A DNA stretch of 64,000 nucleotides from an uncultured Gammaproteobacteria bacterium (GTDB lineage Bacteria > Pseudomonadota > Gammaproteobacteria > CAYGNG01): assembly GCA_964351225.1 (NCBI GenBank), contig CAYGNG010000003.1, positions 20,478 to 84,477 of the forward strand, in the 5' to 3' direction. Both the position numbers and the translations under genes were made by a program. Numbering within the stretch: position 1 is the stretch's first letter; every line of letters starts with the position of its first letter. Shown here piece by piece: positions 3,947-32,046 of the stretch. The notes beneath the pieces were generated by a model, which saw only the letters and a list, made by a program, of their open reading frames with translations, made no database searches and had not been told where the DNA came from.

Positions 3947-5914
3947 TCACATCTTTCCCATAGGAATAGCTGAATTTTGTTGCGAAGACCAGGCATTCGC
4001 TAATTGTGGCAACGGTTCACACGCTGGGACACTGAAATCTTCAACTTCAGCCAATTCTTTACGCTCAATTTCCAATTGTCGATTGATCCCGCGGATCGCT
4101 GAAAAATATTGTTGATAAAAAAAGTGGGTCGCGTTACTACGAAATCTGGGTTTATCTTGATGACCCCCCACTTTTTTTTGTATTAAGTTCCCAATCTGAT
4201 TGAATTTATCGATATAGTTGCTGTCTGTTAAATTACTCAATATCGCACGAATTTTCTTCACGCCATCAGGCACCTTATGCCCAAACCACAAAAACACTCG
4301 CCCCTCTCGTTGCCATTGCGCGTCAAACGCTATCACGCGCATACATTGCAATAATTCCAAACGCCTATCAATTTGGGGTTTAACGGGTCGCTGCGCCAAT
4401 TCTTGTTGCTGTAAGACATAAGCCTTTTGTGCGGCTGCCACGCGCTCTTTATGGATTGCAAAAATCTGATCCAGCTCTAATAATCGATTGCGCATGGCCG
4501 CTTCTTTCTGCGTAACAAGGTCAAGTGCTACCGAATGATTAGACCAACCCAAATAATGCTCTGAGCTTTCCATTGTCTGGGAAACCCAATTGAATAAGCG
4601 TACCAGCCTTTTTTGCGATGGCTCCGATCTGTCGTTGAGTGACGTCTCTATTTCTGTTAAATAATTTTTCTGTTCTTCTGCGGGTAAGCCAATAAGTTCA
4701 ATATTATCTTTAATAAATTGTAAATTGGATTGTGGAATTTGATTTAATGGCGTTTGCTTATATTTTTGCAACGCTTGCAATAACAAAACATGTTTGTGAT
4801 GTTGTGCATGATAGGCCAGCAATTTGGCTTGCCACTTATGCATCCGTGCTTCACGCTTTTCTAGTCGGGATTTCCAGAAAGGAATCGGCTCTGGCAGCTC
4901 GACCTTCGCAGCCGTTGCAATTTGCCCATAAGCATCAAGGCAAGGGATCAAATGATTCATCAACACGCCCTCTCGCAGATAAGCGCTCTCTTCGAGGCGG
5001 TCGACGTATTCAACCATTGATTGCAGCAAAGGATGTAATTCTTTCAGGGTTTTTCTGAGTAGTAAATTGAGCTCATGCGCAGAATCTTCCATCATTGCGC
5101 CATAATCAATCTCTTTAAATGCTTTCTGTAAGTCCTGACTGCCCACGGCTAATCTCGAATAGCAGAGAACAACATTACTCTCACCATAATAATTATCAAC
5201 CAGTTCTTTAGCAATGGTTAACGCATTGAGCGTCGCCTTCGTGTTTCGGACTGTTTCATTATCTTGTTTGAAAATAACATAGCGGCCCTGAACTTTAACA
5301 AAATAATTTTTAATTTGTTCTGAGAAATTCGTTGCGACATTCGCTTCGGTTTTTTTGATCAAGAAATCCATCTGTCGAACTAACCACGGCTTTACCGTGC
5401 TGGGATCGGTGAGTGGATGTGTTCTATCCCCTCCCTCAAAGCGCTGTAAGGTTTGCACCATCTCAACCAGAGCCATAGCCCACGTGCTATTAGATTGCTT
5501 AGACATACCCGCCAGCACTTCTTGTGCCACATTTTTAATCCGACCCTCGGCAATCCCAAAACTTTTCTCGGCAACTTGCAATGCACTATCAAATCGCATG
5601 GCATAATTTAAGGTATCGTGATAAATAAAATTCAAGGTGTGTTGAATATCACCCACATCCATTTTGGATAGCGCACGCACTTGCTCAATTAATTCTTTCA
5701 AATTAGCGAGTGAAAAAACTTCGGATAACTGCTGCAGGTAGTACAAGACATTCAGTAGGGCTTTGATGTTTCGAGTCAATGGGGTGTCGTTTTCGGTGAG
5801 CTCATAAACGACCAACTCATCTCGTCTGAATGTGTTTAACACGATAGGGTCAAGATATGAAACCAATTTGTCATAAATTTCTCGCCGCAACGCTGCAATT
5901 TTTTGATCTAACAT
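3947..5914 (-). CDS. Hypothetical helical/coiled-coil protein, effector-like
   Basis: 655-aa ORF, no enzyme motif; C-terminal VPDGVKKIRAIL...RFRSNATHFFY block. Confidence 0.75.
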   Translation of the reverse strand: MLDQKIAALRREIYDKLVSYLDPIVLNTFRRDELVVYELTENDTPLTRNIKALLNVLYYLQQLSEVFSLANLKELIEQVRALSKMDVGDIQHTLNFIYHDTLNYAMRFDSALQVAEKSFGIAEGRIKNVAQEVLAGMSKQSNSTWAMALVEMVQTLQRFEGGDRTHPLTDPSTVKPWLVRQMDFLIKKTEANVATNFSEQIKNYFVKVQGRYVIFKQDNETVRNTKATLNALTIAKELVDNYYGESNVVLCYSRLAVGSQDLQKAFKEIDYGAMMEDSAHELNLLLRKTLKELHPLLQSMVEYVDRLEESAYLREGVLMNHLIPCLDAYGQIATAAKVELPEPIPFWKSRLEKREARMHKWQAKLLAYHAQHHKHVLLLQALQKYKQTPLNQIPQSNLQFIKDNIELIGLPAEEQKNYLTEIETSLNDRSEPSQKRLVRLFNWVSQTMESSEHYLGWSNHSVALDLVTQKEAAMRNRLLELDQIFAIHKERVAAAQKAYVLQQQELAQRPVKPQIDRRLELLQCMRVIAFDAQWQREGRVFLWFGHKVPDGVKKIRAILSNLTDSNYIDKFNQIGNLIQKKVGGHQDKPRFRSNATHFFYQQYFSAIRGINRQLEIERKELAEVEDFSVPACEPLPQLANAWSSQQNSAIPMGKM

Positions 5915-6041
5915 TTATCGTACACCCTAATTATTCTAGACATACAATAGCCCACGACTCTGTCTGGCGTATTGCTTAGATGCAAAATTTTGTAACCAAA
6001 TGTAACGTTGTATTTCAATTCGACCAGAATGATCCGTATTA

Positions 6042-6374
6042 TTACAAAGCAGAAACGGAATCTAAGATAGCTTGCAGCTCACCGCTTTGGTGAAGCTCGG
6101 TCACAATATCGCACCCACCAATCAATTCCCCTTTAACGTACAGCTGTGGAAAAGTAGGCCAATTTGCATAAATTGGCAACGCTTGGCGAATATCGGGATT
6201 TTCTAATACATTGACATAATCAAATGGCACACCATATTGCTTCAACACCTGCACCACTTGGCTTGAAAAGCCACACTGGGGAAACGGTGGCGTTCCTTTC
6301 ATGTAAAGCAAAATCGATGCCTTTGCAATTTGTTGTTTGATTCGTTCAATGGTTTCTTGGACTAACTCACTCAT
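6042..6374 (-). CDS. grxD: Monothiol glutaredoxin Grx4
   Basis: KGT...PQCGFS, WPTFPQLY, GGCD. Confidence 0.97.
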   Translation of the reverse strand: MSELVQETIERIKQQIAKASILLYMKGTPPFPQCGFSSQVVQVLKQYGVPFDYVNVLENPDIRQALPIYANWPTFPQLYVKGELIGGCDIVTELHQSGELQAILDSVSAL

Positions 6375-6437
6375 GTTTTTATACCTTTGCCTGCTATCCT
6401 GTTCCCAGGTACAATGTGGCGGTTGTTATTAGTATTA

Positions 6438-6500
6438 GGGCTTACGCAAAACGCGCTATGCTTTGTTGAAAAATCGCCGAGCATCGTTTATCGTAAGTCC
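6438..6500. repeat. 63-bp palindromic repeat, family B, copy 2
   Basis: TA-gggcttacgcaaaacgcgc...agcatcgtttatcgtaagtcc-TA; ends gg(g/a)cttacg are inverted. Confidence 0.75.
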
Positions 6501-6569
6501 TAATTATGTCTGAAAATAGTAGAAAACCCAAGAATTAACAGGCCCTAGATGCTCAAAGGAGTATAAATA

Positions 6570-7157
6570 ATGTCCATTGAATTACCAGCCCTCCCTTATG
6601 AAATGGATGCCTTAGAACCGCATCTCTCTCGAGAAACCTTAGAATATCACTACGGTAAACACCACCAAGCTTACGTGACCAACCTGAATAATTTACTGGC
6701 TAACTCTGAATTTGCTGGCAAATCCTTAGAAGAAATGATTAAAAAAGCAACAGGTGGGATCTTTAATAATGCGGCTCAAATTTGGAATCACACTTTTTAT
6801 TGGCATTGCTTAAGCCCAAACGGTGGCGGCAAACCCAGTGGCAACTTACTTGCCGCCCTAGAAAAGCAATTTGACAGTTTTGATAAATTCAAAGAAATCT
6901 TCACTCAAACCACCGCAACAACTTTTGGCTCTGGTTGGGGATGGTTGGTGAAAAAAACCGATGGCTCACTTGCCATTACCAGCACCAGCAATGCCGACAC
7001 CCCCCTTAAGCACGGCGAAACCCCGCTATTAACTTGTGATGTTTGGGAACATGCTTATTACATTGACTATCGTAATGCTCGCCCCAAATACATCGAAGCA
7101 TTTTGGAATTTAGTTAACTGGGAATTTGTTACCAGTAATTGGCAAAAAGCCCAATAG
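6570..7157 (+). CDS. sodB: Fe superoxide dismutase
   Basis: [23 protein letters not shown]; AAQ pattern of the Fe type. Confidence 0.95.
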
Positions 7158-7209
7158 TTACGAAATAATCTGTGCCGCTCTCTGGTGGATTACGATGAGT
7201 ACCTATCTA

Positions 7210-7254
7210 GGGCCTTTGACAATTGCTTTTTCGGCTGCAAATGGCAATAGGTCC
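7210..7254. repeat. Mini family-A repeat (45 bp)
   Basis: TA-gggcctttgacaattgctttttcggctgcaaatggcaataggtcc-TA; its end overlaps the aroA stop codon. Confidence 0.8.
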
Positions 7255-8570
7255 TAATCCACCCATTCTATCTTGGCGCCAAGTCGACACATCGCTTGGT
7301 AAAAATCAGGGTAACTCTTTTGAATGCAGTCAATATCGCTTACCTGTGTCACCCCCTCACAGCCAAGGGCCGCGACGGTAAGCGCCATCGCAATCCGATG
7401 ATCCTGATGCGAGTTAACTTTCGCCCCATGCAATTTTGAATGGCGGATAACTAAAGCATCGGAATATTCATCGATATCTGCACCCATTTTCTTCAGCTCG
7501 GTGGTAATAGCACGTAAACGGTCACTCTCTTTTTTTCTCGCAATACCCGCATTTTTCAAAATCATTTCACCGTCCGCATAACATCCAACCACTGCTAAAA
7601 TGGGTAAGGCATCAATCATATCATTCACATCAATCTCCCGATTGTGCAAACGCCCACTGATTGCCACCGACAACCGCCCTGAATCTTCAGAAATTTTCGC
7701 CCCCATCGTCTGCAAAATGCCAATAACCGCCTTATCGCCTTGGCAATCATTTATATCGACGCCTGCAATTACAATTGTCGACTGCGTGAGCAATGCGGCT
7801 ACTAGTGGAAAAATCAACGAACTGAAGTCCCCTGGGACCGGGTATTTAAATCCTTTGATTGCGGCATTCCCTTGCACCACATAGTGCTCATCACGCATTT
7901 TTTTATAAGCTATCCCGAGTTTATCAAACCAATTCAGTGTTAAGTGGATCCAAGGTAATTCCCCGGGATTATGGACATGAATTTCCGTTCTCCCCGGCAA
8001 CCACGCCGCCGCAATGAGCAATCCTGAAACGGGTTGAGAATCCGCCCCATCCAAATCCGTATACCCTGGCAACATGGGGCCTTTGATGATCACCGGGGCA
8101 TAAGCATCGCCTTTGAGTGTCACACAAGTGGCTCCCAGTTTAGATAGCGCCGTTAACAATGGTTGGATTGGTCGATTATACCGCAAAGAATGATCGCCGG
8201 TCAGGACGACATAACCATCAATCAATGCGGCTATCGCGGCAATAAATCGTAAAACTTGCCCTGAATTACCGGCATCAATGACATCATCGGGCAATATCGG
8301 CTTCCCTGAAACACCCACCACTTTAAATCCACGCTCTTCTTGCGTGATCGCTGCACCCAACTGTCGACAAGCCGTCACCATTGCCTTCACATCTGGTGAA
8401 ATCAATGGGCCATCAATCTGACTTTGCCCCTCAGCCATCGTTGCAAACAATACACTTCGCAAAGTCTGTGACTTTGAAGGTGGTGCTTGAATAACACCAT
8501 TGAGCTTGGAGTAAGAAACCCGATACGCTCGAGAAACACCGGTCTGGAAAAGAGGATCTGTTGCTTTCAT
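7254..8570 (-). CDS. aroA: EPSP synthase
   Basis: PPSKS, GNSG, RPIQPL, SQPVS, KESDR, DHRIAM, KSYP motifs. Confidence 0.95.
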   Translation of the reverse strand: MKATDPLFQTGVSRAYRVSYSKLNGVIQAPPSKSQTLRSVLFATMAEGQSQIDGPLISPDVKAMVTACRQLGAAITQEERGFKVVGVSGKPILPDDVIDAGNSGQVLRFIAAIAALIDGYVVLTGDHSLRYNRPIQPLLTALSKLGATCVTLKGDAYAPVIIKGPMLPGYTDLDGADSQPVSGLLIAAAWLPGRTEIHVHNPGELPWIHLTLNWFDKLGIAYKKMRDEHYVVQGNAAIKGFKYPVPGDFSSLIFPLVAALLTQSTIVIAGVDINDCQGDKAVIGILQTMGAKISEDSGRLSVAISGRLHNREIDVNDMIDALPILAVVGCYADGEMILKNAGIARKKESDRLRAITTELKKMGADIDEYSDALVIRHSKLHGAKVNSHQDHRIAMALTVAALGCEGVTQVSDIDCIQKSYPDFYQAMCRLGAKIEWVD

Positions 8571-10855: not shown

Positions 10856-11488
10856 ATGAACTATTTTGATATCTCTCCTTTAATCGATTCAACGCTGGCC
10901 GTATTCCCTGGAGACACGCCTTTCCACCAACAATTCAGCAAACATTATAGTAAGGCAGATAATTACGCATTATCGTCTATTACCACAACTGTGCATATCG
11001 GAGCCCACACGGATGCGCCCCATCATTATCACCCCAATGGAACCACTATCGATAAAAGATCATTAGATTTTTATTACGGAAAAGCCCAAGTGATCCGGGT
11101 CAAAGCGAAACCGGCGCCTTATCGACTAACCCCTAGCGATATTGAAAATATTGCCATCACAGCGCCGCGCATTTTATTTCACACCGGCTCTTTCCCCGAT
11201 CCTTATCAGTGGCGAGACGATTTCACTGCCCTCTCCCCGGAATTAATTGATTTTCTGGCAACCCAACAGGTGAAACTCATTGGAATCGATACCCCATCAG
11301 TCGATCCAGCCAGTGATCCGGCATTATTATCTCACCATGCCATATTCAAACATGATATGGCGATTTTAGAAGGGATTGTATTAGAAACCGTGCCTGCAGG
11401 CTGTTATCATTTAGTGGCTTTGCCACTTCGGATCAAAGACGCAGACGCCTCACCGGTTCGAGCAATATTAATCGCGGAGAAATCATGA
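10856..11488 (+). CDS. kynB: Kynurenine formamidase (cyclase family)
   Basis: HIGAHTDAPHH metal motif, GIDTPSVD, DASPVRA; context. Confidence 0.88.
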   Translation: MNYFDISPLIDSTLAVFPGDTPFHQQFSKHYSKADNYALSSITTTVHIGAHTDAPHHYHPNGTTIDKRSLDFYYGKAQVIRVKAKPAPYRLTPSDIENIAITAPRILFHTGSFPDPYQWRDDFTALSPELIDFLATQQVKLIGIDTPSVDPASDPALLSHHAIFKHDMAILEGIVLETVPAGCYHLVALPLRIKDADASPVRAILIAEKS

Positions 11489-12270
11489 CAGAACGCACAC
11501 TTTCCCATAAAACAGCACTCGTTTGTGGTGCCACCAAAGGTATCGGTCATGCCACTGCTCAGGCACTCGCGACTCTAGGGGCCAGAGTCATCGTATTAGC
11601 ACGAGATCCCAGCGCTTGTGAAGCAATCGCGGCCCAGCTTCCAGGGGATCAAACACACTTGGCTATCCCTCTTGATTTAACACAACATAGCCACTTAGAA
11701 GAATCCATCCGTAGCGTGATCCAGCAACATGGACCGATTGAAATTTTAATTAACAATGCGGGTGGCCCCGCACCCGGCGCCATTCGTGATGCGAAAATCA
11801 GCGAGTTAATAACCGCATTTGAGCAACATTTGTTTGCTTGTATGCTGCTCGCACAATTACTGCTGCCTGGTATGGAGCAAAAAAAATATGGCCGCATCAT
11901 TAACATTATCTCGACTTCCGTCAAAGCGCCTATTCCAGGACTTGGCGTTTCTAACACCGTACGCTGGTCCGTCGCCGCCTGGGCAAAAACCTTATCCTGT
12001 GAAGTTGCCAATCTCGGTGTAACGGTCAATTCCGTGTTACCTGGAGCCACTGACACCGAACGGCTGTCACAATTAATTGCCAACCGTGCTCAAAAAACCG
12101 GAAAATCAATACCCGATATTGCAAACGCCATGCAAGCCGATATTCCAGCTGGACGCTTCGGTAAACCGGAAGAAATTGCTAACGTCATCGCATTTCTAGC
12201 AAGTCCTGCCGCCAGTTATGTTAATGGCTGTGCTATTCCTGTGGATGGCGGTAGAACACCATGCTATTAA
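11485..12270 (+). CDS. Atypical SDR oxidoreductase
   Basis: GATKGIG, NNAGG; SNTVR in place of YxxxK; overlaps kynB stop. Confidence 0.9.
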   Translation: MTERTLSHKTALVCGATKGIGHATAQALATLGARVIVLARDPSACEAIAAQLPGDQTHLAIPLDLTQHSHLEESIRSVIQQHGPIEILINNAGGPAPGAIRDAKISELITAFEQHLFACMLLAQLLLPGMEQKKYGRIINIISTSVKAPIPGLGVSNTVRWSVAAWAKTLSCEVANLGVTVNSVLPGATDTERLSQLIANRAQKTGKSIPDIANAMQADIPAGRFGKPEEIANVIAFLASPAASYVNGCAIPVDGGRTPCY

Positions 12271-12336: not shown

Positions 12337-14097
12337 CTATAATAGGTGAGCAAACTCATATTGCGCTAAGGCGATTTCTTGCGGCCTGATCACTCCGATA
12401 ATTTGCTCTAAGGGTGCGGTAAATTGAGTGTCTACCACAATCGCCAGCTCAGCCGCATGATGCTTCATGGCTCGCATAATCGCTGGCAAAAAATCTTCCT
12501 TGTCGACAAAAATAAATTGCGTTGAGAGTTTCCCCTCATTTGGATCCGCTCCGTGATGATTTACCAGATGGATGCCCACAATTTTTTGTTGATCCGCAAC
12601 TAAAGTCACGGGGTAGCATAAACGTTTCATGTTGGTTTTTTGATCGTGTTGCCATGCCGAGATGGTTTTAATTTCAAACTGCGTCGTCAATAAAAAACTG
12701 GCTTTTTCGGCAGATAACAATGCGGAAGTAAGCCCTTCTGGTAAAATCTTGCCGCGCCGCAAAATTTTTAAGGTATAAATGCTGTAATGGGATAAACTTT
12801 TCCTAACGGCGTAGGCAATAACCGCAACGAAAAATACCGGTAACATCGCCTCGGTCGCGCGAGTCATTTCAATCGTCATGATGATAGAAGTCAGTACCGC
12901 ACCGGTTGCCCCACTTATCATGCCCGCCATACCGGTGATAGCGAAGAATATCGGGCTAACGGGAAAATCTGGCATAATAGAATGACAAATCCAACCTACC
13001 GCACCCCCTAACGTGGCACCAATATACAATCCCGGCGAAAAAACACCACCAGAAGCACCAGAGCCAATGGTAAGGCCCGTTGCAATTAATTTCGCAAAGC
13101 ACAGCAATAATAAAAATTCAGGATGCCACAGCGTGCCACGCAAAATATCATCAACGGTGGCATAGCCAACACCCTCGATATAGTAATCGCCTGTGAAATG
13201 ATAGAAGGTATAAATAAGGACCCCTACCAGAAACATTCCAAAGCAATGACGAGTATAATAATTACCGGGTAATCTATCGAAAAAATCTTCAAACCAATAA
13301 ATCACATGAACATAAATAGTACTTACCAAGCCAAAAATAATTCCCGTTGGGATAAAAACCAATAAAGCCATAACTGGGATCAAATGGGTTTCCGAAATTT
13401 GTAACGTGGGCACATCAAATGCCGGCGCTAATCCCATGCAAGCACGACCAATATAGGTGGCTACCGTCGTGGCAATGCCCACCACTAACATGGACTCAGC
13501 TGAAATGGCAACCAACATTAATTCCACCGCGAATGCTAATGCCCCAATGGGGGTATTAAAAGTAGCGGCGATACCACCGGCGGCACCTGCGGCAATTAAG
13601 ATCACGCGCTGCCGCGCGGGAAGTGTCACCAATTTTCCTAATAATGAACCAAAAGCCGAGCCAATTTGCACAATGGGTCCCTCACGCCCAACAGAACCAC
13701 CAGAGCCAATTGAAATAGCCGAGGTGAGCGATTTCACCACCGCAACCCAACCTCGAATTTTGCCCTCATTGTGATAAATTGCATTCATCACTTCCGGAAC
13801 CCCATGACCCTTGGCTTCTGGAGCAAAATTTTTCACAAGATAGGTCACCAAGACCGCCCCCAGAACAGGGATGAAAATCAACCCAAGGCCCCATGGGGTC
13901 GGGCCACTGTGAATATTGGCATCGTATTCATAATCCCAGCGTCCAAGTAATAATAGGTTATGAAGAAACCCTATCATATAACGAAAAACCACCGCACCAA
14001 CACCCGATACAACACCAATTAAAAAAGCAAGTGCAGCCATCCGATATTGGCTGACATTGGTTTCGCCAGTGGTACCGAAGTGATAATAATTTTCCAT
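12337..14097 (-). CDS. ClC-family chloride channel/H+ antiporter
   Basis: GHGVPE, GREGP, GGVFSP signatures, many TM helices, degenerate C-terminal CBS-like tail. Confidence 0.92.
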   Translation of the reverse strand: MENYYHFGTTGETNVSQYRMAALAFLIGVVSGVGAVVFRYMIGFLHNLLLLGRWDYEYDANIHSGPTPWGLGLIFIPVLGAVLVTYLVKNFAPEAKGHGVPEVMNAIYHNEGKIRGWVAVVKSLTSAISIGSGGSVGREGPIVQIGSAFGSLLGKLVTLPARQRVILIAAGAAGGIAATFNTPIGALAFAVELMLVAISAESMLVVGIATTVATYIGRACMGLAPAFDVPTLQISETHLIPVMALLVFIPTGIIFGLVSTIYVHVIYWFEDFFDRLPGNYYTRHCFGMFLVGVLIYTFYHFTGDYYIEGVGYATVDDILRGTLWHPEFLLLLCFAKLIATGLTIGSGASGGVFSPGLYIGATLGGAVGWICHSIMPDFPVSPIFFAITGMAGMISGATGAVLTSIIMTIEMTRATEAMLPVFFVAVIAYAVRKSLSHYSIYTLKILRRGKILPEGLTSALLSAEKASFLLTTQFEIKTISAWQHDQKTNMKRLCYPVTLVADQQKIVGIHLVNHHGADPNEGKLSTQFIFVDKEDFLPAIMRAMKHHAAELAIVVDTQFTAPLEQIIGVIRPQEIALAQYEFAHLL

Positions 14098-14252
14098 ATT
14101 TTATCGCTACTTTCCTTAGTCTCTTAATACGATTATACCGATAAGCCGGTATAGAGCAATAATGGTAACCGCGCTGCCACGGTCTGTTTAGGATCAAGCG
14201 GTGGGGAGATGCCTTACTTGTATTATACCTCGCTGCACCGCAATAAAAATTA

Positions 14253-15623
14253 CTATGCTCTGCTGCGATATTCAGCCACCCGCTTGAAATATTGCTCGAT
14301 GCATGCTTCATGCCGCGCCCAATTGAGTTGTGACACCGTGGTTATCCCGTCAGCTAATGCCGCTAACAACGGTTGTTGTAATTCATTGGCAAACTGCGCA
14401 AAAGCATAATCCTCATGACGAAAAGCAATAATATGGTATTTGCCAAAGTATTGATCCGGGTAACGCTGCATCAACGCTTGCTCTATTTGTTTTTTTAATA
14501 GGAATTTTTCATTCGCCACCTGATCCCGCATTTCATAATAATTCTCTATCGCCATTGCAGCAATTGCATTGGTGTTACCTTGTCGCAAGGTATAATATTC
14601 TTCGAATATCGCTTGCCACGATAACTTGCTGGATTGACAATTTGCAATGAGGTCATTGAGTACTACGCAATCTTCAAATGCACAATTCATCCCTTGCCCA
14701 AGAAACGGAACAATGGCATGAGCCGAATCCCCGATAAGCAGTGCCTTATCTTCATAATACCAAGGCCCACCTTTGATGGTTACCATGGCCCCTGTCGGAT
14801 TATTAAAATAATCTTCAACACACTTTGGCATTAAATTTACGGCATCGGGAAACTGCTTCTGAAAAAAATCCGTGACTGATGCAGGATGATTAATATTTTC
14901 AAAACTAAGCTCGCCCTGCCTTGCCATAAACAAAGTGCAGGTAAAGCTCTTATCCGCGTTTGGCAGTGCTATCATCATGAAGTCATTGCGCGGCCAAATA
15001 TGTAAATAATTCTGCTGCAAGCGACATCCCAACTCCGGCGGAATGGCTAACTCTTTATAAGCATGTGGCAATTGCTCAACCGCAAACTGCATCAACCCCT
15101 GATTTTCTAAGGCGTAGCGCATTGCTGAAAATGCACCGTCAGCAGCAAAAACCAATTTTGCTTCAACATCAACGAATTGCTTATGGATTTCATCGCTAAA
15201 AGTTAAAACCGATCCATCAGGACGGTAATCTTTTAGCTTATGGCAAAACATAATCTTTACATTGGGATAACGCTGTGCTGCCGTCATTAATATTTTGTTT
15301 AACTCTGCTCGGGAAATTGAATTTTGGTGTTCGGAATCATTGCGGCCATAAGCTTGATACTCACAACGCCCATGCAAACCATGGATCATTCGTCCAAGCA
15401 TTGGGACTGCATGCGCCATCACTTCATCGGCAATCCCCCCCTGCTCCAACGCTTTAATGCCACGGCATGAAATCGCGAGATTAATTGAACGGCCTGCTAA
15501 AAACGGCACTTGTCGCATATCCGCATTACGCTCATAGATAGTAACATCAAGCCCACGCTTAGCTAAATATATCGCCAACAAAGATCCGGTCAACCCCGCT
15601 CCGATAATCACACACTCTGTCAT
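14253..15623 (-). CDS. kmo: Kynurenine 3-monooxygenase
   Basis: GAGLTG, GRSINLAIS, ADGAFS, HIWPR, GDSAHAIVPFLGQGMNCAFED. Confidence 0.95.
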   Translation of the reverse strand: MTECVIIGAGLTGSLLAIYLAKRGLDVTIYERNADMRQVPFLAGRSINLAISCRGIKALEQGGIADEVMAHAVPMLGRMIHGLHGRCEYQAYGRNDSEHQNSISRAELNKILMTAAQRYPNVKIMFCHKLKDYRPDGSVLTFSDEIHKQFVDVEAKLVFAADGAFSAMRYALENQGLMQFAVEQLPHAYKELAIPPELGCRLQQNYLHIWPRNDFMMIALPNADKSFTCTLFMARQGELSFENINHPASVTDFFQKQFPDAVNLMPKCVEDYFNNPTGAMVTIKGGPWYYEDKALLIGDSAHAIVPFLGQGMNCAFEDCVVLNDLIANCQSSKLSWQAIFEEYYTLRQGNTNAIAAMAIENYYEMRDQVANEKFLLKKQIEQALMQRYPDQYFGKYHIIAFRHEDYAFAQFANELQQPLLAALADGITTVSQLNWARHEACIEQYFKRVAEYRSRA

Positions 15624-16861
15624 AGTAATTCCTTGAGGATCTCAACAAAGCTAACTATATCTTGATAACGATTATATAAAGGCGTCGGTGCCACGCGGAT
15701 CACACCAGGCTTGCGATAGTCACAAACAACGCCATACCCTTCTAAAGCGGCAAGCGGATCGGGATGCTCGTTTGGCCATGTCAAAGATAGTTGACAACCC
15801 CGCTCATTCGCCTCTCGTGGCGTTAGGACTCTGACTTTACTTTCTGGCAACTGTCGAACACAATCATACAAAAATCCCGTTAACTTGATACTCTTCTCTC
15901 GTAATTTAGCCATAGCCGCTTGTTGGAATAATTCAATCGCAGCACGCAAAGCGGCCAATTGTAAAATAGGTGGATTACTCAACTGCCAACTCTCGGCGGT
16001 ACCAATAGCACGAAAATCTTTAGGCATAGTAAATCGTGATTGTTTATCGTGGCCCCACCAACCATTCAATCTCGGAATTGACTCATCTTGGCAATGCTTT
16101 TCATACACATAAGCGCCACCAATAGTTCCAGGACCACCATTAATATATTTGTAATGACACCACACAGCAAAATCAACTTGCCATTTATGCAACTGCAATA
16201 ATACATTACCCACCGCATGCGCCAAATCGAAACCCACCACACAACCCTGATCATGACCGGCTCGAGTAATGGCGGCCATATCAAACACTTGACCCGTGTA
16301 ATAATTAACCCCACCGAAAAGAATCAAAGCAATGTGTTCGCCTTCGGCCGCAATCCGATCAATGATATCTTCATGGCGAATATTATCCTCGCCAGGGCGA
16401 GCTTGTATTTCTATCAAACTATCTGCCACAGAATATCCATGCATCATAATTTGTGAGCACACGGCATAACGATCGGAAGGAAAGCTACCGTGTTCAATCA
16501 GAATTTTATGGCGTTTTTGAGTAGGGCGGTAAAATGAGATCATCAGTAAATGTAAATTCACTGTTAAGGCATTCATCGCAACCACTTCATGCGATTTTGC
16601 CCCAACAATTTCAGCAAGGCCATTGGCCACAAATTCATGATATGGCAACCACGGATACTTAGCATCCATATGCCCTTTTACCCCTAATTGTGCCCAGTCT
16701 TGTAAAGCTTGATTAACATATTCCGCTGTGCGCTTCGGCTGTAAACCCAGAGAATTCCCTGCAAAGTAAAGTGCCTCTTTTGAATTCAATATCGGAATAT
16801 GAAACTGACTGCGAAAATGCGCTAACGGATCTTCTCGATCTAATTGTTGTGCTTGCATCAT
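15620..16861 (-). CDS. kynU: Kynureninase
   Basis: GNSLGLQP, MNALTVNLHL, FDLAHAVGN, WCHYKYINGGPG, GWWGH. Confidence 0.96.
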   Translation of the reverse strand: MMQAQQLDREDPLAHFRSQFHIPILNSKEALYFAGNSLGLQPKRTAEYVNQALQDWAQLGVKGHMDAKYPWLPYHEFVANGLAEIVGAKSHEVVAMNALTVNLHLLMISFYRPTQKRHKILIEHGSFPSDRYAVCSQIMMHGYSVADSLIEIQARPGEDNIRHEDIIDRIAAEGEHIALILFGGVNYYTGQVFDMAAITRAGHDQGCVVGFDLAHAVGNVLLQLHKWQVDFAVWCHYKYINGGPGTIGGAYVYEKHCQDESIPRLNGWWGHDKQSRFTMPKDFRAIGTAESWQLSNPPILQLAALRAAIELFQQAAMAKLREKSIKLTGFLYDCVRQLPESKVRVLTPREANERGCQLSLTWPNEHPDPLAALEGYGVVCDYRKPGVIRVAPTPLYNRYQDIVSFVEILKELL

Positions 16862-17874
16862 ATGAAAGCTTCTCTATTTAATCCTAACCACTCTAAAGCG
16901 GTACCCGACAACAACCGGTTGCGATCACCAATGCTCAGTGACCCCATGCTATTAATCAAACCACCAGGCTCTAACTCGCCCAGGGGAAAAGGGTAATCAC
17001 TGCCTAATGCAATCCGCTGAACCCCGACTAAATCAATTAGGAACTGTAATGTCTGTTTATCATGCACCAAAGAATCAAATACCATTTGCGGCAAAAACTC
17101 TCTCGGATTGATATCATTATCAACCGCGCACAGATCGGGCCGCATCAAGAACCCATGTTCAATTCGCCCTAACGTCGCTGGAAACGCCCCACCGCCATGG
17201 GCAAACGCCAATCGCAAATTGGGTAACCGCTGCATGACACCGCCGAAAATAAGTGAACAGATTGCGCGCGCCGTCTCAGCCGGCATACCCACCAACCAAG
17301 GCAACCAATATGATTTCATATGCTCTCTACCCATCATCTCCCATGGATGAATAAAAATGCAGGCATTCAAATCTTGCGCGGCTTGAAAGAAATCAAATAG
17401 TCTTGGATCGCTCAAGTTAAGATTATTAACATTCGAACCGATTTGAACCCCTGGAAAACCAAGCACTCCGACACAGCGTTCTAACTCTCGAATAGCCAAG
17501 GCGGTATCTTGCAATGGCACGGTACCAAGCCCAACAAATTGTTTCGGGTGTTGTTGCACCACTTGCGCAATATGATCATTTAAGAATTCCGCTATGGCAA
17601 GACCATCTTGTGGCTTAACCCAATAACAAAACATAACCGGCACTGTCGATAACACCTGAACATCGACATCAAAATCTTCGCACTCTTGCAATCGCACCCT
17701 GGGATCCCAGCAGTTTGACTTTATCTGCCTGAAAAACTCACCACTGTCGCTTACCATATTTGCCCGTTTCGCACCACAGTGATCTAACTGAATAAACCCA
17801 CCATAGCCAAACTTTTCTTTAAAGTTAGGAATATGCTCTGGAAGAATGTGGGTGTGAATATCGATAGTAAGCAT
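16858..17874 (-). CDS. nbaD: 2-amino-3-carboxymuconate-6-semialdehyde decarboxylase (ACMSD)
   Basis: IDIHTHILP, FIHPW, WLPWLVGMP, HGGG, LGSDYPFPLGE; start placed at MLTID (track ORF starts 17922). Confidence 0.92.
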   Translation of the reverse strand: MLTIDIHTHILPEHIPNFKEKFGYGGFIQLDHCGAKRANMVSDSGEFFRQIKSNCWDPRVRLQECEDFDVDVQVLSTVPVMFCYWVKPQDGLAIAEFLNDHIAQVVQQHPKQFVGLGTVPLQDTALAIRELERCVGVLGFPGVQIGSNVNNLNLSDPRLFDFFQAAQDLNACIFIHPWEMMGREHMKSYWLPWLVGMPAETARAICSLIFGGVMQRLPNLRLAFAHGGGAFPATLGRIEHGFLMRPDLCAVDNDINPREFLPQMVFDSLVHDKQTLQFLIDLVGVQRIALGSDYPFPLGELEPGGLINSMGSLSIGDRNRLLSGTALEWLGLNREAFI

Positions 17875-17888
17875 ACGCCCTCGCTTTA

Positions 17889-18392
17889 TTATTTGCTCGC
17901 AACCAAACCACACACTCGGCAAGTAGAGCGCTCTGCATTAGAGTAAAAGCCATCCAATACCGGTGGCAAATCTTTCACAATATCACTGACATGCACATAC
18001 ACCTCATGTAATAATGTCTCGCAGTTTTGGCAATACCACTGGAAACCATCTCGCTCACAAGGTTGACGCTTTTTCTCAATCACCATACCCACGGTATTTT
18101 CCAATCGTTGGGGTGAATGCGGCACGGAGCCTGGCAATAAAAATATTTCACCTTGGCGGATCGACACATTTTTAAATTGCCCTTGCTCAACAATTTTGAG
18201 CTCCATATCACCCTCAATTTGGTAAAAAAATTCCTCTCCCACATTAACATGGTAATCCATCCGTTGATTGCGACCACCGACCAGCATCACGATAAATTCA
18301 CTGTCTTCCCACACGACTTTATTGTTGACTGGCGGTTGTAATAAATGGCGATTCAAAGCAAGCCATTGACGAAGATTAATCGGTGGCAACAT
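17889..18392 (-). CDS. nbaC: 3-hydroxyanthranilate 3,4-dioxygenase
   Basis: VGG-x-N-x-R-x-DYH, EEFFYQ, PHSPQR, two CxxC rubredoxin-like pairs. Confidence 0.96.
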   Translation of the reverse strand: MLPPINLRQWLALNRHLLQPPVNNKVVWEDSEFIVMLVGGRNQRMDYHVNVGEEFFYQIEGDMELKIVEQGQFKNVSIRQGEIFLLPGSVPHSPQRLENTVGMVIEKKRQPCERDGFQWYCQNCETLLHEVYVHVSDIVKDLPPVLDGFYSNAERSTCRVCGLVASK

Positions 18393-18401: not shown

Positions 18402-18818
18402 TTAAATAACCGCAATGCATTTCAGCTCTATTGCGATAGGTGTTGGCAAACCGTTAATTCCTATGGTGGTACGCGTCGGTTGATTATCTTTAAAATATTC
18501 TGCATATATTTTATTGTAAACGGCAAAGTCGGCTTGCATATTCGTCAGAAAAACCGTCACATCCACCAATTGCAGCCAACTCGAACCGGCTTCTTGTAAA
18601 ATGGTTTTGACATTATCAAACACACTTCGGCATTGTGTGGCGATGTCATAACGAATGATTTTACCCTCAGCATCGAGCTCTACCCCGGGGATGGTGCTAT
18701 AGCCTTTTTGCCGCGGCCCAACCCCAGATAAAAACAATAAATTTCCCACACGCTTGGCATGAGGATACAAGCCAACCGGCTCTGGTGCTTGGCTTGAAAT
18801 AATAGATTGTGCAGACAT
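18402..18818 (-). CDS. RidA-family protein, probable 2-aminomuconate deaminase
   Basis: PVGLYPHAKRVGNLLFLSG, PTRTT, LPTPIAIELK; start at ATG 18818, as the longer track start lies inside a repeat. Confidence 0.85.
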   Translation of the reverse strand: MSAQSIISSQAPEPVGLYPHAKRVGNLLFLSGVGPRQKGYSTIPGVELDAEGKIIRYDIATQCRSVFDNVKTILQEAGSSWLQLVDVTVFLTNMQADFAVYNKIYAEYFKDNQPTRTTIGINGLPTPIAIELKCIAVI

Positions 18819-18840
18819 TTTTCGCTTCTCGTATTTTATA

Positions 18841-18886
18841 GGCCCTGTTGACAATTGCTTTTTCGGCTGCAAATGTCAACAAGCAC
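18841..18886. repeat. Mini family-A repeat (46 bp)
   Basis: TA-ggccctgttgacaattgctttttcggctgcaaatgtcaacaagcac, inside the catabolic operon. Confidence 0.85.
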
Positions 18887-18887
18887 T

Positions 18888-20336
18888 TTAATTGATGTTG
18901 ACACAAATGTTTTTAGGTTCTGTAAAGAAACGTAATCCTTCTATGCCGCCTTCCCGGCCAAGACCCGATTGCTTCATTCCGCCAAACGGTGTCCGCAGAT
19001 CACGCACCATCCAGCAATTAACCCAGATAAGCCCAGCATGAATTTGTGCTGCGATTCGATGCGCGCGCGACAGAGATTGTGTGAATATAGTGGCAGCTAA
19101 CCCATAGTCGCTATCATTTGCCCAATTCAAAACTTGATATTCGTTGTTAAACGGCATAATGCTAGTAACTGGCCCAAAAATTTCTTCCTGGTTCGTGCGG
19201 CAATTGGGATCCAATCCGGTGATCACCGTGGGCAGAATGAAATGCCCTTTGGCACAGCGTCCTTCTAACTGCACTCTCTCGCCACCCAAGATAATTTCGC
19301 CACCTTCGTTTGTTGCCAAATCAACATAAGACATTATCTTGTTGAAATGCTCTTGACTAATGATGGCGCCCTGCTGTGTGTTTTGATCCATGGGATCGCC
19401 CAATTTTAATTTAGCCGTAGCCGCCACAAATAAATCGACAAACTGATCATATATCGACTCCTCAACGAAAATTCGCGAAGTGCATAAGCATATTTGACCT
19501 TGATTCGAAAAGCTTGCCCGCACACACTCAGACACGGCAAGCTCTATGTTACAATCTGCGAAAATCAAAGCAGGATTCTTACCCCCGAGTTCCAAGGCGT
19601 GTTTTTTAAATTGTGGCGCCAATTCAGTCGCTATTCTTTTCCCTGTCACCGTACCACCGGTAAACGTAATTGCTTTGACTTCGGCATTACTGCAAAGTGC
19701 TTGGCCCGTCGTTTCACCTGCGCCATAAACAATATTCAATACCCCTTTGGGAAAGCCAATCTCTTGGCAAATTTTAGCAAGCTCATGGGCGGTTAACGAA
19801 GTGAGCTCAGATGGCTTTGCCACCACACAATTGCCAGTCGCCAACGCTGGTGCAATTTTCCAGGTTAATAAATATAGCGGCAAATTCCAAGGGGTTATGG
19901 CACCCACAACGCCCAACGGCTGACGCAGGGTATAATTTAATGCTCGCTCACCCATACTATAACATTCAGAATGAAATTGCGTGACGGCATGAGCAAAATA
20001 GCGCAAGTTTGCGCTCGCTCTTGCCATATCGACACTCTTCGCTAAAGTGATGGGCTTGCCGGTATCTCGAGTTTCGCATTCAGCAAGTTCATCTTGCTTA
20101 TACTCAATCGCATCGGCTAAACGCATCAACCAATTCGCTCTTTCTTCAATAGAGAGCTTAGACCAACGCGGAAAAGCATCTTTCGCAGCAAACACCGCTT
20201 GAATAACCGCTTCGGAATCGCCTCTTGGCACTTGGTAAATAACTTCTCCTGTCGCGGGATTAATCCCTTCTAAATATTCGTCATCTGTCGCTGGAAACCA
20301 TTCGGCATTTATATAATGGTGTATTTTTTCGGACAT
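18888..20336 (-). CDS. 2-aminomuconate semialdehyde dehydrogenase (ALDH8-like)
   Basis: PWNLPL, FTGGT, LELGGKNP, NQGQICLC, EEIFGPV, RDLRTPFGG; context. Confidence 0.9.
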   Translation of the reverse strand: MSEKIHHYINAEWFPATDDEYLEGINPATGEVIYQVPRGDSEAVIQAVFAAKDAFPRWSKLSIEERANWLMRLADAIEYKQDELAECETRDTGKPITLAKSVDMARASANLRYFAHAVTQFHSECYSMGERALNYTLRQPLGVVGAITPWNLPLYLLTWKIAPALATGNCVVAKPSELTSLTAHELAKICQEIGFPKGVLNIVYGAGETTGQALCSNAEVKAITFTGGTVTGKRIATELAPQFKKHALELGGKNPALIFADCNIELAVSECVRASFSNQGQICLCTSRIFVEESIYDQFVDLFVAATAKLKLGDPMDQNTQQGAIISQEHFNKIMSYVDLATNEGGEIILGGERVQLEGRCAKGHFILPTVITGLDPNCRTNQEEIFGPVTSIMPFNNEYQVLNWANDSDYGLAATIFTQSLSRAHRIAAQIHAGLIWVNCWMVRDLRTPFGGMKQSGLGREGGIEGLRFFTEPKNICVNIN

Positions 20337-20339: not shown

Positions 20340-21392
20340 TTACTCCCTATTGTAGACAAACCCCAATTTCGCAACATAACTATCCACTAGTTTTGGCAAC
20401 GCATTCCTTGGAATAATATAAGTGGTTAAATTGGCAATATCATTAAATATTTTATGGTTTTCTACCGTGGATTTTAAATACTCATGCCCAGCGGAGCCGC
20501 CAGTGCCAACTTTAGTGCCAATCATTCGCATGACCAGTAACGCATGACCATAGCGCCATTGTGTAAATAATTCATCGATTGACACTAACGTCGACAATAA
20601 TTGAAAAGGCAATTGAAATACCGGTTGCTCTCGATATAAATAAATAAACAAGGCCGCACCCAACGCCTCATAAGACAGGATCTTCTTGCCATTTTGGTGG
20701 GTAGAATAATACTTTTCTTTATCAAAGAGTGTCGCAAAATGCGCTGCTTCAACCTTGATTTGTTTTTGCCGAATCGACTGGTTAGGCGTCAAAGCGTGTT
20801 CGGCTTGCTGTTGCTTCTCACCAAGCCAACACTGTACGGCCTTTTGATATTCGAGCCAAAAATTAAATTCCCCGGTTTGTAGAAACGGCATTCTCGTTAA
20901 CCACGTCTCAACTAAATCGAATAATGACAGCGGCTGTTGTTGATGCGCTGACGCCAATTTATCAAAATAAGGCGCTTGTTTATTATTGTGATCAGAGGAC
21001 AAACCGAACAGCATTTCAATTTGTCGAAATTGCACACTCTGAAAGCCAGAGGCTGGGATCAAATAATCACGAAATTCAAGAAACTCCATCGGCGTTAGAG
21101 TTTTTAAAATGGCGAGTTGATCGACTAATAATTTTTGTATGGCGGTGATCCGCCCTAAACGATGAACCACTAAAGAAATGGTATGATCGCTTAAAACCGG
21201 CGCATTCATGCAATGGCATACCGATTGCAATTCATGCAAAATTTGCTTAAACCATAATTCATACGCTTGATGAATGACGATGAATAACATTTCATCGTGG
21301 GCACCTTCACCGTAGTTAGCACTTTCTGGCGCTTGGGCAGATAAAATTTTGTCTAATTGTAAATATTCCCCATAACAAATCGTTTTGCTCAT
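20340..21392 (-). CDS. kynA: Tryptophan 2,3-dioxygenase, long form
   Basis: YGEYLQL, HDEMLFIVIHQAYELWFKQ, SGFQSVQFR, GTGGS; start at MSKTI (track ORF starts 21431). Confidence 0.95.
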   Translation of the reverse strand: MSKTICYGEYLQLDKILSAQAPESANYGEGAHDEMLFIVIHQAYELWFKQILHELQSVCHCMNAPVLSDHTISLVVHRLGRITAIQKLLVDQLAILKTLTPMEFLEFRDYLIPASGFQSVQFRQIEMLFGLSSDHNNKQAPYFDKLASAHQQQPLSLFDLVETWLTRMPFLQTGEFNFWLEYQKAVQCWLGEKQQQAEHALTPNQSIRQKQIKVEAAHFATLFDKEKYYSTHQNGKKILSYEALGAALFIYLYREQPVFQLPFQLLSTLVSIDELFTQWRYGHALLVMRMIGTKVGTGGSAGHEYLKSTVENHKIFNDIANLTTYIIPRNALPKLVDSYVAKLGFVYNRE

Positions 21393-21540
21393 ATTGTTCT
21401 CAAATTTTAAATTTCTCCACAACAAATGCATCGTATCATCATCCGCGTTTCATGCCTACAGCTTGATTAGATCCAATAAGGACCTTAGACTTACCTTCAA
21501 AAAAACATTGTTAATGTACCGTAGCAATTAAGGACTCATC

Positions 21541-22908
21541 ATGGCTGTGTATCACTCCACCCTCGAAATGATAGGCAATACCCCGCTCTTGCAAGTCACC
21601 CGAATGGATACTGGGCCTTGTCAACTCTTTTTGAAACTCGAATGCCAAAACCCTGGTGGATCAATTAAAGACCGTATCGCTCTTAATATGGTTGAACGCG
21701 CAGAACAGTCTGGGAAGTTAAAACCAGGCGGTACCATCGTGGAAGCAACGGCCGGTAACACGGGATTAGGCTTAGCCATTGTGGCAAGTCTCAAAGGTTA
21801 TAAAGCGGTGATTGTGATGCCCGATAAAATGAGCCGTGAAAAAGTCTTTCATTTACGCGCGCTTGGTGCTGAAGTTATCATGACGCGATCGGACGTCACC
21901 AAAGGTCACCCCGAATATTATCAAGATTTAGCGCAAACCGTCGTGAATAATTTAGATAATGCTTATTACATTAACCAGTTTGCCAATGAATATAATGTTG
22001 CAAGCCATTACCAATCAACAGCCCCAGAGATTTGGGAGCAAATGGATCATCAAGTTGATGCGTTGGTTGCTGGTATCGGCACGGGCGGCACCATCACAGG
22101 TGTCGGCAAATTTTTTAAAGAGCACAACCCAAATATTGAAATCGTATTAGCCGATCCTAAAGGCTCCGTGTTAACCGACTTTGTCAATCACGGCACACTC
22201 GGACAAGCCGCTTCCTGGCTGGTTGAAGGTATTGGTGAAGATTTCATTCCTCGTATTTGCGACATGACATTAATCGATGCGGCGATATCCGTCTCTGATA
22301 AAGAATCCTTTCTAGCGGCAAGAGAATTGTTGCGTCAAGAAGGGATCATGGGTGGCTCTTCAACTGGCACACTGCTGCATGCGGCCTTAACTTACTGCCG
22401 CCAACAAACTCAAGCTAAGCGTGTCGTGACTTTTGTGTGTGATACGGGAAATAAATATTTATCTAAACTCTATAACGACTATTGGATGCTGGATCAGGGC
22501 TTTTTTGAAAAACCCAGCCATGGTGATTTACGCGATATTATTAGACATCACCATGCTGAACACGCCACCGTCACGGTTGCCCCGCATGAACCGCTCAGCA
22601 CCGTGCATAATCGCATGCGCTTACACGATGTCTCACAATTGCCCGTGTTAGTTAATGGTGCTGTTGTTGGTATTGTCGATGAATCTGATTTATTATTGGC
22701 AATTTATAATGATGCTACGGGCTTTAGTAAACCGGTTCAAGATATCATGACTAAAAACTTAGTGCTCGTCAAAAAAGAAGCGAGCTTAGACGCGTTGCTC
22801 AAAACACTCAAAGACGATTACGTTGCTATTATCATGGATAATGAAAAATTTTATGGGATCATTACCAAAATTGATGTCATTAATTATTTAAGAAGAAAAG
22901 CCACCTAA
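21541..22908 (+). CDS. cbs: Cystathionine beta-synthase with C-terminal CBS pair, no heme domain
   Basis: NPGGSIKDR PLP lysine, GTGGT, EGIG, DTGNKYLSK. Confidence 0.9.
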   Translation: MAVYHSTLEMIGNTPLLQVTRMDTGPCQLFLKLECQNPGGSIKDRIALNMVERAEQSGKLKPGGTIVEATAGNTGLGLAIVASLKGYKAVIVMPDKMSREKVFHLRALGAEVIMTRSDVTKGHPEYYQDLAQTVVNNLDNAYYINQFANEYNVASHYQSTAPEIWEQMDHQVDALVAGIGTGGTITGVGKFFKEHNPNIEIVLADPKGSVLTDFVNHGTLGQAASWLVEGIGEDFIPRICDMTLIDAAISVSDKESFLAARELLRQEGIMGGSSTGTLLHAALTYCRQQTQAKRVVTFVCDTGNKYLSKLYNDYWMLDQGFFEKPSHGDLRDIIRHHHAEHATVTVAPHEPLSTVHNRMRLHDVSQLPVLVNGAVVGIVDESDLLLAIYNDATGFSKPVQDIMTKNLVLVKKEASLDALLKTLKDDYVAIIMDNEKFYGIITKIDVINYLRRKAT

Positions 22909-22922
22909 CCACCGAGGAAATC

Positions 22923-31908: not shown

Positions 31909-32046
31909 AACCGGTTTACCATTGGGCGGCATCAATTAGTAAAATTAACCACACAAGATCCTAAACAGATAGCTAACAGCGGCGGATTCAAATTTGTATG
32001 GATATTAGGGCCTGTGCACATTTATAAACTTGACAACCTTATAGGG

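Follow-up and report, generated by a model that had tools for sequence, protein, structure and literature searches.

The window analysed here, a stretch of 64,000 nucleotides from an uncultured gammaproteobacterium (contig CAYGNG010000003.1), carries genes for tryptophan breakdown through kynurenine and, beside them, a gene for an atypical short-chain dehydrogenase/reductase (SDR). This SDR and the clade it belongs to, named SDR1 here, are the subject of the present work. In textbook maps, 2-aminomuconate is converted to 2-oxoadipate, and then to glutaryl-CoA, via a reductase. The original prediction, made from the sequence of the window, proposed the SDR as this reductase and held that the gene for the step is poorly defined. 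The literature agrees on the latter point, as the step after 2-aminomuconate deamination is treated as unassigned (bioRxiv 10.64898/2026.06.05.730449; PMC7842363). A full-text literature search returned no paper that assigns a bacterial gene to the step or mentions SDR1 in kynurenine clusters.

The kynurenine genes and the SDR of the window

All eight known genes from tryptophan onward are present in the window, in line with the original claim that the cluster holds every step up to deamination of 2-aminomuconate. The main operon is on the minus strand. It encodes tryptophan 2,3-dioxygenase (TDO, 20340..21431; PF03301, E = 3.2e-96), 2-aminomuconate-semialdehyde dehydrogenase (AMSDH, 18888..20336; PF00171, E = 1.5e-173), a RidA-family protein that is probably the 2-aminomuconate deaminase (AMD, 18402..18872; PF01042, E = 1.8e-26), 3-hydroxyanthranilate 3,4-dioxygenase (HAO, 17889..18392; TIGR03037, 233 bits for a cut-off of 146), ACMSD (16858..17922; PF04909, E = 6.7e-38), kynureninase (KYNU, 15620..16861; TIGR01814, 467.6 bits for a cut-off of 246) and kynurenine 3-monooxygenase (KMO, 14253..15623; PF01494, E = 7e-24). 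AMSDH scores 563 bits with TIGR03216, below the cut-off of 693. KMO has an orthologous position in the operons of L037, L045, L121 and L130 (lineages are labelled with L numbers throughout). Homologues of the window ACMSD are 64-68% identical to it and are named ACMSD by some sources. In both ACMSD and RidA, translation probably starts downstream of the mechanically assigned TTG. For ACMSD, the true start is probably an ATG giving gene 16858-17874 and a called product of 338 residues (P0121). For RidA, an internal ATG giving 18402-18818 is the probable start; homologues have about 140 residues. The window RidA is 54-72% identical to the RidA proteins of other kynurenine operons and 41-42% identical to those of classical Dmp-type clusters.

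The eighth gene is kynB, encoding arylformamidase (10856..11488, plus strand; PF04199, E = 4.3e-20; TIGR03035, 204.5 bits for a cut-off of 223). It is directly followed by the SDR gene (11485..12270, plus strand), identified from its open reading frame (ORF), its Pfam matches and an AlphaFold2 model, and encoding 261 residues. The two genes are translationally coupled, as first noted from the sequence: the start codon of the SDR overlaps the kynB stop codon by four bases (ATGA at 11485-11488). A GGAG sequence is found 6 bases 5' of the ATG. The kynB-SDR pair converges on the main operon and is a separate transcription unit. Scans for promoters and terminators around the SDR gene gave no more matches than shuffled sequence. 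RNA-seq data were sought to look at co-expression, and only four metagenomic DNA runs contain the sequence. The gene located between the SDR and KMO encodes a ClC-type chloride channel/exchanger (12337..14097, minus strand; PF00654, E = 1.1e-89). It is probably outside the kynurenine pathway and not conserved in other operons.

Homologues of DmpE and DmpH (hydratase and decarboxylase), DmpF and DmpG were not found in the 64-kb window, either by tblastn or when the remaining large ORFs were scanned with Pfam. The queries were the DmpE/F/G/H proteins of two classical plasmid clusters, from Vibrio and Cupriavidus, and a FAH-family protein from Corallococcus. This negative result carries weight because the same search detects a divergent FAH-family member in L127. 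The cluster had been described as having no decarboxylase or hydratase, and this holds for DmpE and DmpH within the window.

The window protein is a member of the SDR superfamily. This is shown by its Pfam scores (adh_short_C2, E = 1.1e-44, 153.2 bits for a cut-off of 27; adh_short, E = 1.2e-40, 139.5 bits for a cut-off of 26.6), by its Gly motif and by an AlphaFold2 model with a pLDDT of 95.8 and TM-scores of at least 0.9 to SDR structures. Below the superfamily level, no NCBIfam model reaches its own cut-off. The top one is PRK08339 (NF006212, a 'short chain dehydrogenase' equivalog), with 196.5 bits for a cut-off of 339. The FabG models also stay below theirs (TIGR01830, 139.6 vs 297.75 bits; PRK05653.1-3, 148.3 vs 296 bits).

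The active site departs from that of classical SDRs. In place of the Asn-Ser-Tyr-Lys tetrad, the protein has His115, Ser143, Ser156 and Arg160. Direct translation and alignment show S156-N-T-V-R160 (11950..11964, plus strand) instead of the YxxxK dyad, so that the catalytic Tyr and Lys of FabG are both absent. His115 (11827..11829, plus strand), in the sequence FEQHLFAC, is located at the position of the tetrad Asn. The catalytic Ser is kept in S143-T-S-V-K147-A-P149 (11911..11931, plus strand; IISTSVKAP), where it is followed by a family-specific TSxKxP stretch. Arg40 (11602..11604, plus strand), after strand beta2 in the sequence VLARD (VLARDP), is a sequence signature of NADP(H) preference. 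Both the SNTVR motif and this arginine had been singled out in the original prediction, and the translation confirms them. An alignment of 52 relatives, 52-59% identical to the window SDR, shows that the dinucleotide motif G15-x3-G19-x-G21 is invariant, as are R40, H115, S143, S156, N157, T158 and R160. Because of this invariance, the unusual motif is a selected character of the clade and not a sequencing error. In a few more divergent operon-linked SDR1s (L060, L102, L121), Arg replaces His115. The invariant Arg40, together with nearest structures solved with NADP(H), suggests that SDR1 prefers NADP(H). To our knowledge, no characterised SDR has a His-Ser-Ser-Arg active site.

Distribution of SDR1 among kynurenine operons

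The wider SDR family contains more than 8000 proteins at E < 1e-30. Within it, the signature GRIINxISTSV[KR]xP..LGVSNT[IV]R..W[AS]KT, together with His115, is confined to the SDR1 clade. Its members have generic database names, such as '3-oxoacyl-[acyl-carrier protein] reductase' or 'SDR family oxidoreductase'. Loci were ascertained through the SDR alone, by a scan of 185,579 species-representative genomes and from six genomic contexts of the best protein matches, and up to 21 kb were examined in each case. Kynurenine genes were found within 6 kb of SDR1 in 14 of the 18 lineages obtained in this way. None of the seven family members tested that have neither the signature nor membership of the sister clade SDR2 (L021, L023, L025, L027, L028, L125, L126) has a kynurenine neighbour. 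When all loci are pooled, AMSDH is the commonest neighbour of SDR1 (18 of 28 lineages) and also the commonest directly adjacent one (10 lineages). The linkage of SDR1 with kynurenine genes spans at least six phylum- or class-level groups.

The arrangement seen most frequently is an SDR1-AMSDH-RidA triad, conserved within compact operons. Such compact operons with SDR1 were found in L037, L038, L045, L060, L066, L075, L102, L103, L116, L121, L123, L124 and L130. In the cultured gammaproteobacterium Aliiglaciecola litoralis (L130), the operon is complete with nine genes, in the order SDR-AMSDH-RidA-HAO-ACMSD-kynB-KYNU-KMO-TDO, and the SDR1 gene is located at 6507-7295. A metagenome-assembled genome (MAG) labelled Rickettsiales (L037) has TDO-SDR-AMSDH-RidA-HAO-ACMSD-kynB-KYNU-KMO, and one labelled Zetaproteobacteria (L038/39) has SDR-AMSDH-RidA-HAO-ACMSD-KYNU. 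The order is SDR-AMSDH-RidA-HAO-x-ACMSD in a Micavibrio MAG (L124), TDO-SDR-x-AMSDH-RidA in a Holophagae MAG (L020) and TDO-SDR-AMSDH-RidA on a 2.9-Mb contig (L123). In Bacteroidota (L008, L009, L026, L040), HAO is divergent from SDR-(DUF4258)-AMSDH, and Chitinophagaceae (L006/7, L011-19) have an SDR-KYNU pair. These differences in gene order between lineages argue against simple inheritance of one ancestral cluster. The genes flanking the operons are mostly peptidases and transporters.

The kynB-SDR pair of the window recurs in L034-L036. L034 contains the closest relative of the window SDR (60% identity), in the order Grx-SodB-kynB-SDR. L128, from a related metagenomic genome, has the CBS-CGL-TDO synteny in common with the window. 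Its operon has seven genes and is missing just kynB and the SDR, the very pair that makes up a separate bicistron in the window and in L034.

A reverse test started from ACMSD. A search of metagenome contigs with an ACMSD alignment gave 80 loci whose ACMSD is 57-65% identical to that of the window. Counts were made on the 48 loci of at least 8 kb, with up to 10 kb on each side of ACMSD. Of these, 14 contain AMSDH, and 9 of the 14 have SDR1; of the 34 without AMSDH, 3 have it (Fisher's exact test, p = 2e-4, for loci that are not phylogenetically independent). A tenth of the 14 AMSDH-bearing loci holds the sister clade SDR2. Dmp genes are found in none of the 48 loci, and tblastn revealed no DmpE/F/G/H homologue in any SDR1 locus. 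Conversely, the classical clusters of Cupriavidus pauculus (L041) and Vibrio nigripulchritudo (L042) contain RidA, HAO, ACMSD and AMSDH together with DmpEFGH and have no SDR1. The original prediction had suggested looking for co-occurrence of this SDR clade with ACMSD, AMSDH and RidA in genomes without nbaG/H. At the level of gene neighbourhoods the outcome is positive, the triad being recurrent and Dmp genes being absent from SDR1 loci. From this distribution, SDR1 is very probably a dedicated enzyme of the kynurenine pathway.

SDR1 was not found on plasmids; the plasmid-borne relatives are outside the clade (at most 44% identity) and belong to unrelated operons. Two of them, on alphaproteobacterial plasmids (L125, 3037-6780; L126, 2958-6759), are part of a conserved operon with genes for an amidohydrolase, an Asp/Glu racemase, a DHDPS-family enzyme and an SDR 42-44% identical to that of the window. 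This operon gives a hint that the Tyr-less family at large acts on 2-oxo acids formed as intermediates in amino-acid catabolism.

Candidate reaction and alternatives

The nearest structural relatives of SDR1 give indications on its chemistry. Search of PDB sequences using phmmer returned three Burkholderia SDRs as best matches, followed by 6JH7, which is AerF. Foldseek, used with the model of the window SDR, placed the Burkholderia structures first, then AerF 6JHB (TM-score 0.92) and, at rank 11, YwfH/BacG (TM-score 0.90). The Burkholderia SDRs (PDB 5VA8, 5VPS, 5IDX/5IDY; E = 3e-42, TM-score 0.92-0.93) share the S-N-x-x-R motif with SDR1 and were solved with NADP(H). However, they have Asn at the position of His115 and Gly or Ala at that of Thr158, and they are outside the SDR1 clade. 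L025, which has no kynurenine neighbours, groups with them in the tree. Because the Burkholderia proteins have no assigned function, they give no help on the substrate.

AerF belongs to the same SDR sub-group (phmmer E = 3.7e-39, 34% identity). Three features are common to AerF and SDR1: a Ser in place of the canonical Tyr, a conserved TSxKxP stretch and a basic residue following beta2. AerF is NADPH-dependent, and in its substrate a C=C bond is in conjugation with a 2-oxo acid; the 6JHB crystal contains NADPH and 4-hydroxyphenylpyruvate. In contrast with SDR1, AerF works in secondary metabolism on a cyclic dienyl-pyruvate, and the tree places it outside the SDR1 clade. Bacillus subtilis BacG/YwfH (PDB 3U49/3U4C) is also an NADPH-dependent SDR but a more distant relative (E = 1.1e-27, 30% identity), with another pathway and another substrate. 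In BacG, hydride reportedly adds at C4 of a C3=C4 bond conjugated to the 2-ketone, and a Lys-x3-Tyr pair is said to be catalytic. The atypical catalytic residues reported for BacG do not match the His/Ser/Ser/Arg set of SDR1. In bacilysin biosynthesis, BacG converts the 2-oxo acid H2HPP into H4HPP by reducing the exocyclic C3=C4 bond that neighbours the 2-keto acid (PMC9147277). The statement that some Tyr-less SDRs are C=C reductases gains in precision, since the nearest characterised homologues of SDR1, AerF and BacG/YwfH, are NADPH-dependent conjugate reductases.

SDR1 shares with AerF and BacG overall similarity and the loss of the canonical Tyr. It does not have their Lys-x3-Tyr pair on the helix of the tetrad Asn. 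AerF has K-x3-Y (K-L-I-G-Y) where the window SDR has H115-L-F-A-C119 and the clade consensus is H-L-L-C-N; it also has Asn instead of Arg160. By analogy, we propose that SDR1 works like an ene-reductase of the AerF/BacG type, without belonging to their clade and with a proton-donor arrangement of its own. The substrate proposed below would share with those of AerF and BacG the same reactive substructure, namely a carboxylate, a 2-ketone and a 3-ene.

We favour the view that SDR1 is a 2-oxohex-3-enedioate (4-oxalocrotonate) reductase forming 2-oxoadipate, with substrate, product and cofactor predicted from genomic context and homology. SDR1 would then be the ninth enzyme of bacterial kynurenine catabolism, an NADPH-dependent 'ene'-reductase of the SDR superfamily. 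In this scheme, TDO, KynB, KMO, KYNU, HAO, ACMSD and AMSDH would convert tryptophan into 2-aminomuconate, the AMSDH step being assigned from its family. The RidA-family deaminase would produce 2-oxohex-3-enedioate and ammonia, as its homologues do in Burkholderia and Aspergillus. SDR1 would bind NADPH, as suggested by R40 and by the neighbouring NADP(H)-bound structures. C4, the position beta to the 2-ketone, would receive hydride from NADPH, and the enolate formed would take up a proton at C3, giving 2-oxoadipate. His115, Ser143 and Ser156 are candidates to stabilise and protonate the enolate, and Lys147, Arg160 and Arg193 are candidates to bind the carboxylates. 2-oxoadipate would enter general metabolism, where housekeeping enzymes may lead it to glutaryl-CoA. 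The original proposal that the SDR fills the step to 2-oxoadipate thus stands as regards pathway membership, which is supported by operon context, by exclusivity with Dmp genes and by homology to C=C reductases; the exact substrate is a prediction.

The decarboxylase NbaG/DmpH (2-oxo-3-hexenedioate decarboxylase) would consume the same deaminase product, so that the two enzymes would be alternatives to each other. It has an equivalent place in the classical 3-hydroxyanthranilate clusters L041 and L042. Unlike SDR1, it has a FAH fold and decarboxylates its substrate, and the DmpE/G/F route leads to pyruvate and acetyl-CoA, not to 2-oxoadipate and glutaryl-CoA.

Several observations weigh against the proposed reaction. 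Four of the 18 SDR-ascertained lineages (L002, L004, L005, L022) have no kynurenine gene within 10 kb of SDR1. Some operons with ACMSD of the same clade have no SDR1 in the stretch examined, at most 10 kb on either side of ACMSD: L091 and L095 have a Zn-dependent alcohol dehydrogenase (Zn-ADH) adjacent to RidA instead, and L099 and L105 have nothing obvious in its place. The annotated genes of the SDR1 operons and those of the window include neither a 2-oxoadipate dehydrogenase nor a glutaryl-CoA dehydrogenase. The mechanism of AerF and BacG is not simply transferable, because SDR1 has no Lys-x3-Tyr pair. Other points on the same side concern the choice of substrate. In the window, the SDR is directly linked only to kynB, on the strand opposite to the main operon, and the same pairing with this upstream enzyme is seen in L034. 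In the Chitinophagaceae loci examined, SDR1 adjoins KYNU only, and not AMSDH. Finally, in Corallococcus coralloides DSM 2259 (L127), a DmpH-like gene of the FAH family (6617-7561) is divergent from AMSDH-RidA-HAO-ACMSD-KYNU-KMO, an operon that ends in SDR2 (13647-14384). SDR2 is a sister SDR of 245 residues. It contains an S-N-G-L-R motif, has 37% identity to the window SDR and also closes the operon in L079 (3204-3941). The coexistence of SDR2 with a DmpH-like decarboxylase in this organism allows for a different substrate.

The last three points would fit a role of SDR1 in the pathway on another substrate. This could be 2-oxopent-4-enoate or 2-hydroxypentadienoate after decarboxylation, 2-oxoadipate itself, reduced to 2-hydroxyadipate, or a reactive side product such as a semialdehyde or a quinone-imine derived from 3-hydroxyanthranilate. 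We regard this as rather unlikely. No decarboxylase homologue is present in any SDR1 locus, the missing Tyr/Lys dyad speaks against reduction of an ordinary ketone or aldehyde, and AMSDH and RidA show the tightest and most frequent linkage with SDR1.

Another possibility is an inverted order of the last two steps. SDR1 would reduce 2-aminomuconate itself, and RidA would then hydrolyse the resulting enamine or imine (2-iminoadipate or an isomer) to 2-oxoadipate and ammonia. RidA proteins are by family enamine/imine deaminases (TIGR00004), and the SDR1-AMSDH-RidA triad is compatible with either order. A precedent for the reduction exists in animals, where the aspartate dehydrogenase-like protein ASPDH was found by comparative genomics to be an NAD(P)H-dependent 2-aminomuconate reductase with 2-aminohex-3-enedioate as product (bioRxiv 10.64898/2026.06.05.730449). 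As proposed for SDR1, metazoan ASPDH carries out an NAD(P)H-dependent reduction right after AMSDH and fills the gap after 2-aminomuconate. Unlike SDR1, it has an aspartate dehydrogenase fold and acts on the amine. Moreover, it is reported to be mutually exclusive with the RidA-type deaminase, whereas SDR1 travels with it. Foldseek gives an SDR fold for the window protein, which places it outside the ASPDH-type reductases, and no aspartate-dehydrogenase family was found in the Pfam matches of the SDR or of the other window ORFs scanned. The inverted order is further disfavoured by the RidA-family AMD of Burkholderia and Aspergillus, which deaminates 2-aminomuconate directly, by the related RidA genes (41-42% identical) that serve the reductase-less Dmp-type clusters, and by AerF and BacG, which act on 2-oxo acids and not on enamines. 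Overall, we consider a reductase of 2-aminomuconate distinctly unlikely.

That the SDR is a housekeeping or unrelated FabG-like enzyme found beside kynB by chance could be suggested by the names given to its relatives and by the FabG models among its NCBIfam matches, but it is very improbable, as none of these models comes near its cut-off, the protein has neither the catalytic Tyr nor the catalytic Lys, and the kynurenine linkage recurs over many phyla and gene orders.

As a 2-oxohex-3-enedioate reductase, SDR1 would represent a new functional type in a known enzyme superfamily and fill a long-standing gap in the pathway. We lean slightly towards a broader view, in which SDR1 defines a third, bacterial route after 2-aminomuconate. 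This route would combine a RidA deaminase with a dedicated NADPH-dependent ene-reductase to yield 2-oxoadipate; SDR1 would have a novel His-Ser-Ser-Arg SDR site and provide the first gene for the 'oxalocrotonate reductase' step. It would be spread over Bacteroidota, Myxococcota-like lineages, Bdellovibrionota, Acidobacteriota and Alpha-, Gamma- and Zetaproteobacteria.

If the assignment is correct, a conserved, operon-encoded reductase would close the bacterial kynurenine pathway. It would offer an alternative to the Dmp/Nba decarboxylase route and to the ASPDH route of metazoans. Annotation pipelines could give a specific name to several thousand proteins for which 'FabG' or 'SDR family oxidoreductase' is used today. 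SDR1 would also allow aromatic amines to be turned into 2-oxoadipate, a precursor of adipate, by simple enzymatic means. In fungi, a bacterial-type deaminase is used and the fate of its product was left open (bioRxiv 10.64898/2026.06.05.730449). Fungal 3-hydroxyanthranilate clusters also carry an SDR (PMC7842363), and SDR1 would be a candidate for the type of enzyme to seek there. The hypothesis is directly testable, as the substrate is enzymatically accessible and a cultured host, Aliiglaciecola litoralis, is available.

Variant loci and flanking regions

Some loci show substitutions or additions around SDR1 and its partners. In a Bdellovibrionales MAG (L010, 10001-17472), SDR1 is accompanied by a luciferase-like gene, asparaginase II, AMSDH, two LigB-type dioxygenase subunits, RidA and kynB. 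The LigB pair, which resembles aminophenol dioxygenase, appears to replace the cupin HAO. In L060, a NadC-like gene (5901-6776; quinolinate phosphoribosyltransferase, recognised by eye) is located between SDR1 and AMSDH. A single operon may here supply the NAD branch as well as the catabolic branch. In kynurenine clusters that lack SDR1, namely L091 (6035-7087) and also L078, L083, L095, L113 and L118, the Zn-ADH, a member of the MDR family, directly follows RidA and is itself followed by a 175-residue protein. Its best NCBIfam match is the NADPH aldehyde reductase Ahr, at 277 bits, below the cut-off of 470. It may be a non-orthologous replacement of the reductase. In L099 (5471-9411), genes for E1 and E2 subunits resembling those of 2-oxoglutarate dehydrogenase (sucA/sucB-like) are located 3 kb downstream of HAO-ACMSD. 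This is the only such case, and it may be a link to 2-oxoadipate dehydrogenase or a coincidence.

Two SDR1 sequences have an irregular structure. In a Bacteroidetes MAG (L026, 9992-10809), SDR1 is split into two ORFs of 109 and 145 residues between HAO and AMSDH, which reflects either a frameshift or a long-read assembly error. A 430-residue protein (P0002) was considered as a fusion protein and rejected. It is an SDR1 in which about 170 residues are duplicated internally, most likely an assembly artefact.

In the window, the kynurenine genes are flanked by genes unrelated to the pathway. One side has genes for a histidine kinase, EPSP synthase, SodB and glutaredoxin, and on the other side are CBS/CGL, ABC-F, ribonucleotide reductase, pilus/secretion genes, PheST and ETF-QO. 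The best named relatives of the window PheS come from Myxococcota or 'Deltaproteobacteria' MAGs (55-61% identity), and the DNA originates from a biofilm metagenome; a Legionellales origin, considered because of the GC content and effector-like ORFs, was rejected. The CBS/CGL pair (cystathionine beta-synthase and gamma-lyase) adjoins TDO both in the window (21541-24074) and in L128 (2231-4794), so that the synteny is conserved. Region 32000-40000 has a GC content of 37-39%, compared with 42-49% elsewhere in the window, and contains many short ORFs on the same strand. Pfam scans of two of these identified one as a GNAT acetyltransferase and gave no match for the other. The region may be a horizontally acquired island. 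Two large ORFs (3947-5914, 655 residues; 39411-42320, 969 residues) have no Pfam family. The first of them is an insertion relative to the RNase T-AhpC-Grx-SodB synteny of L034.

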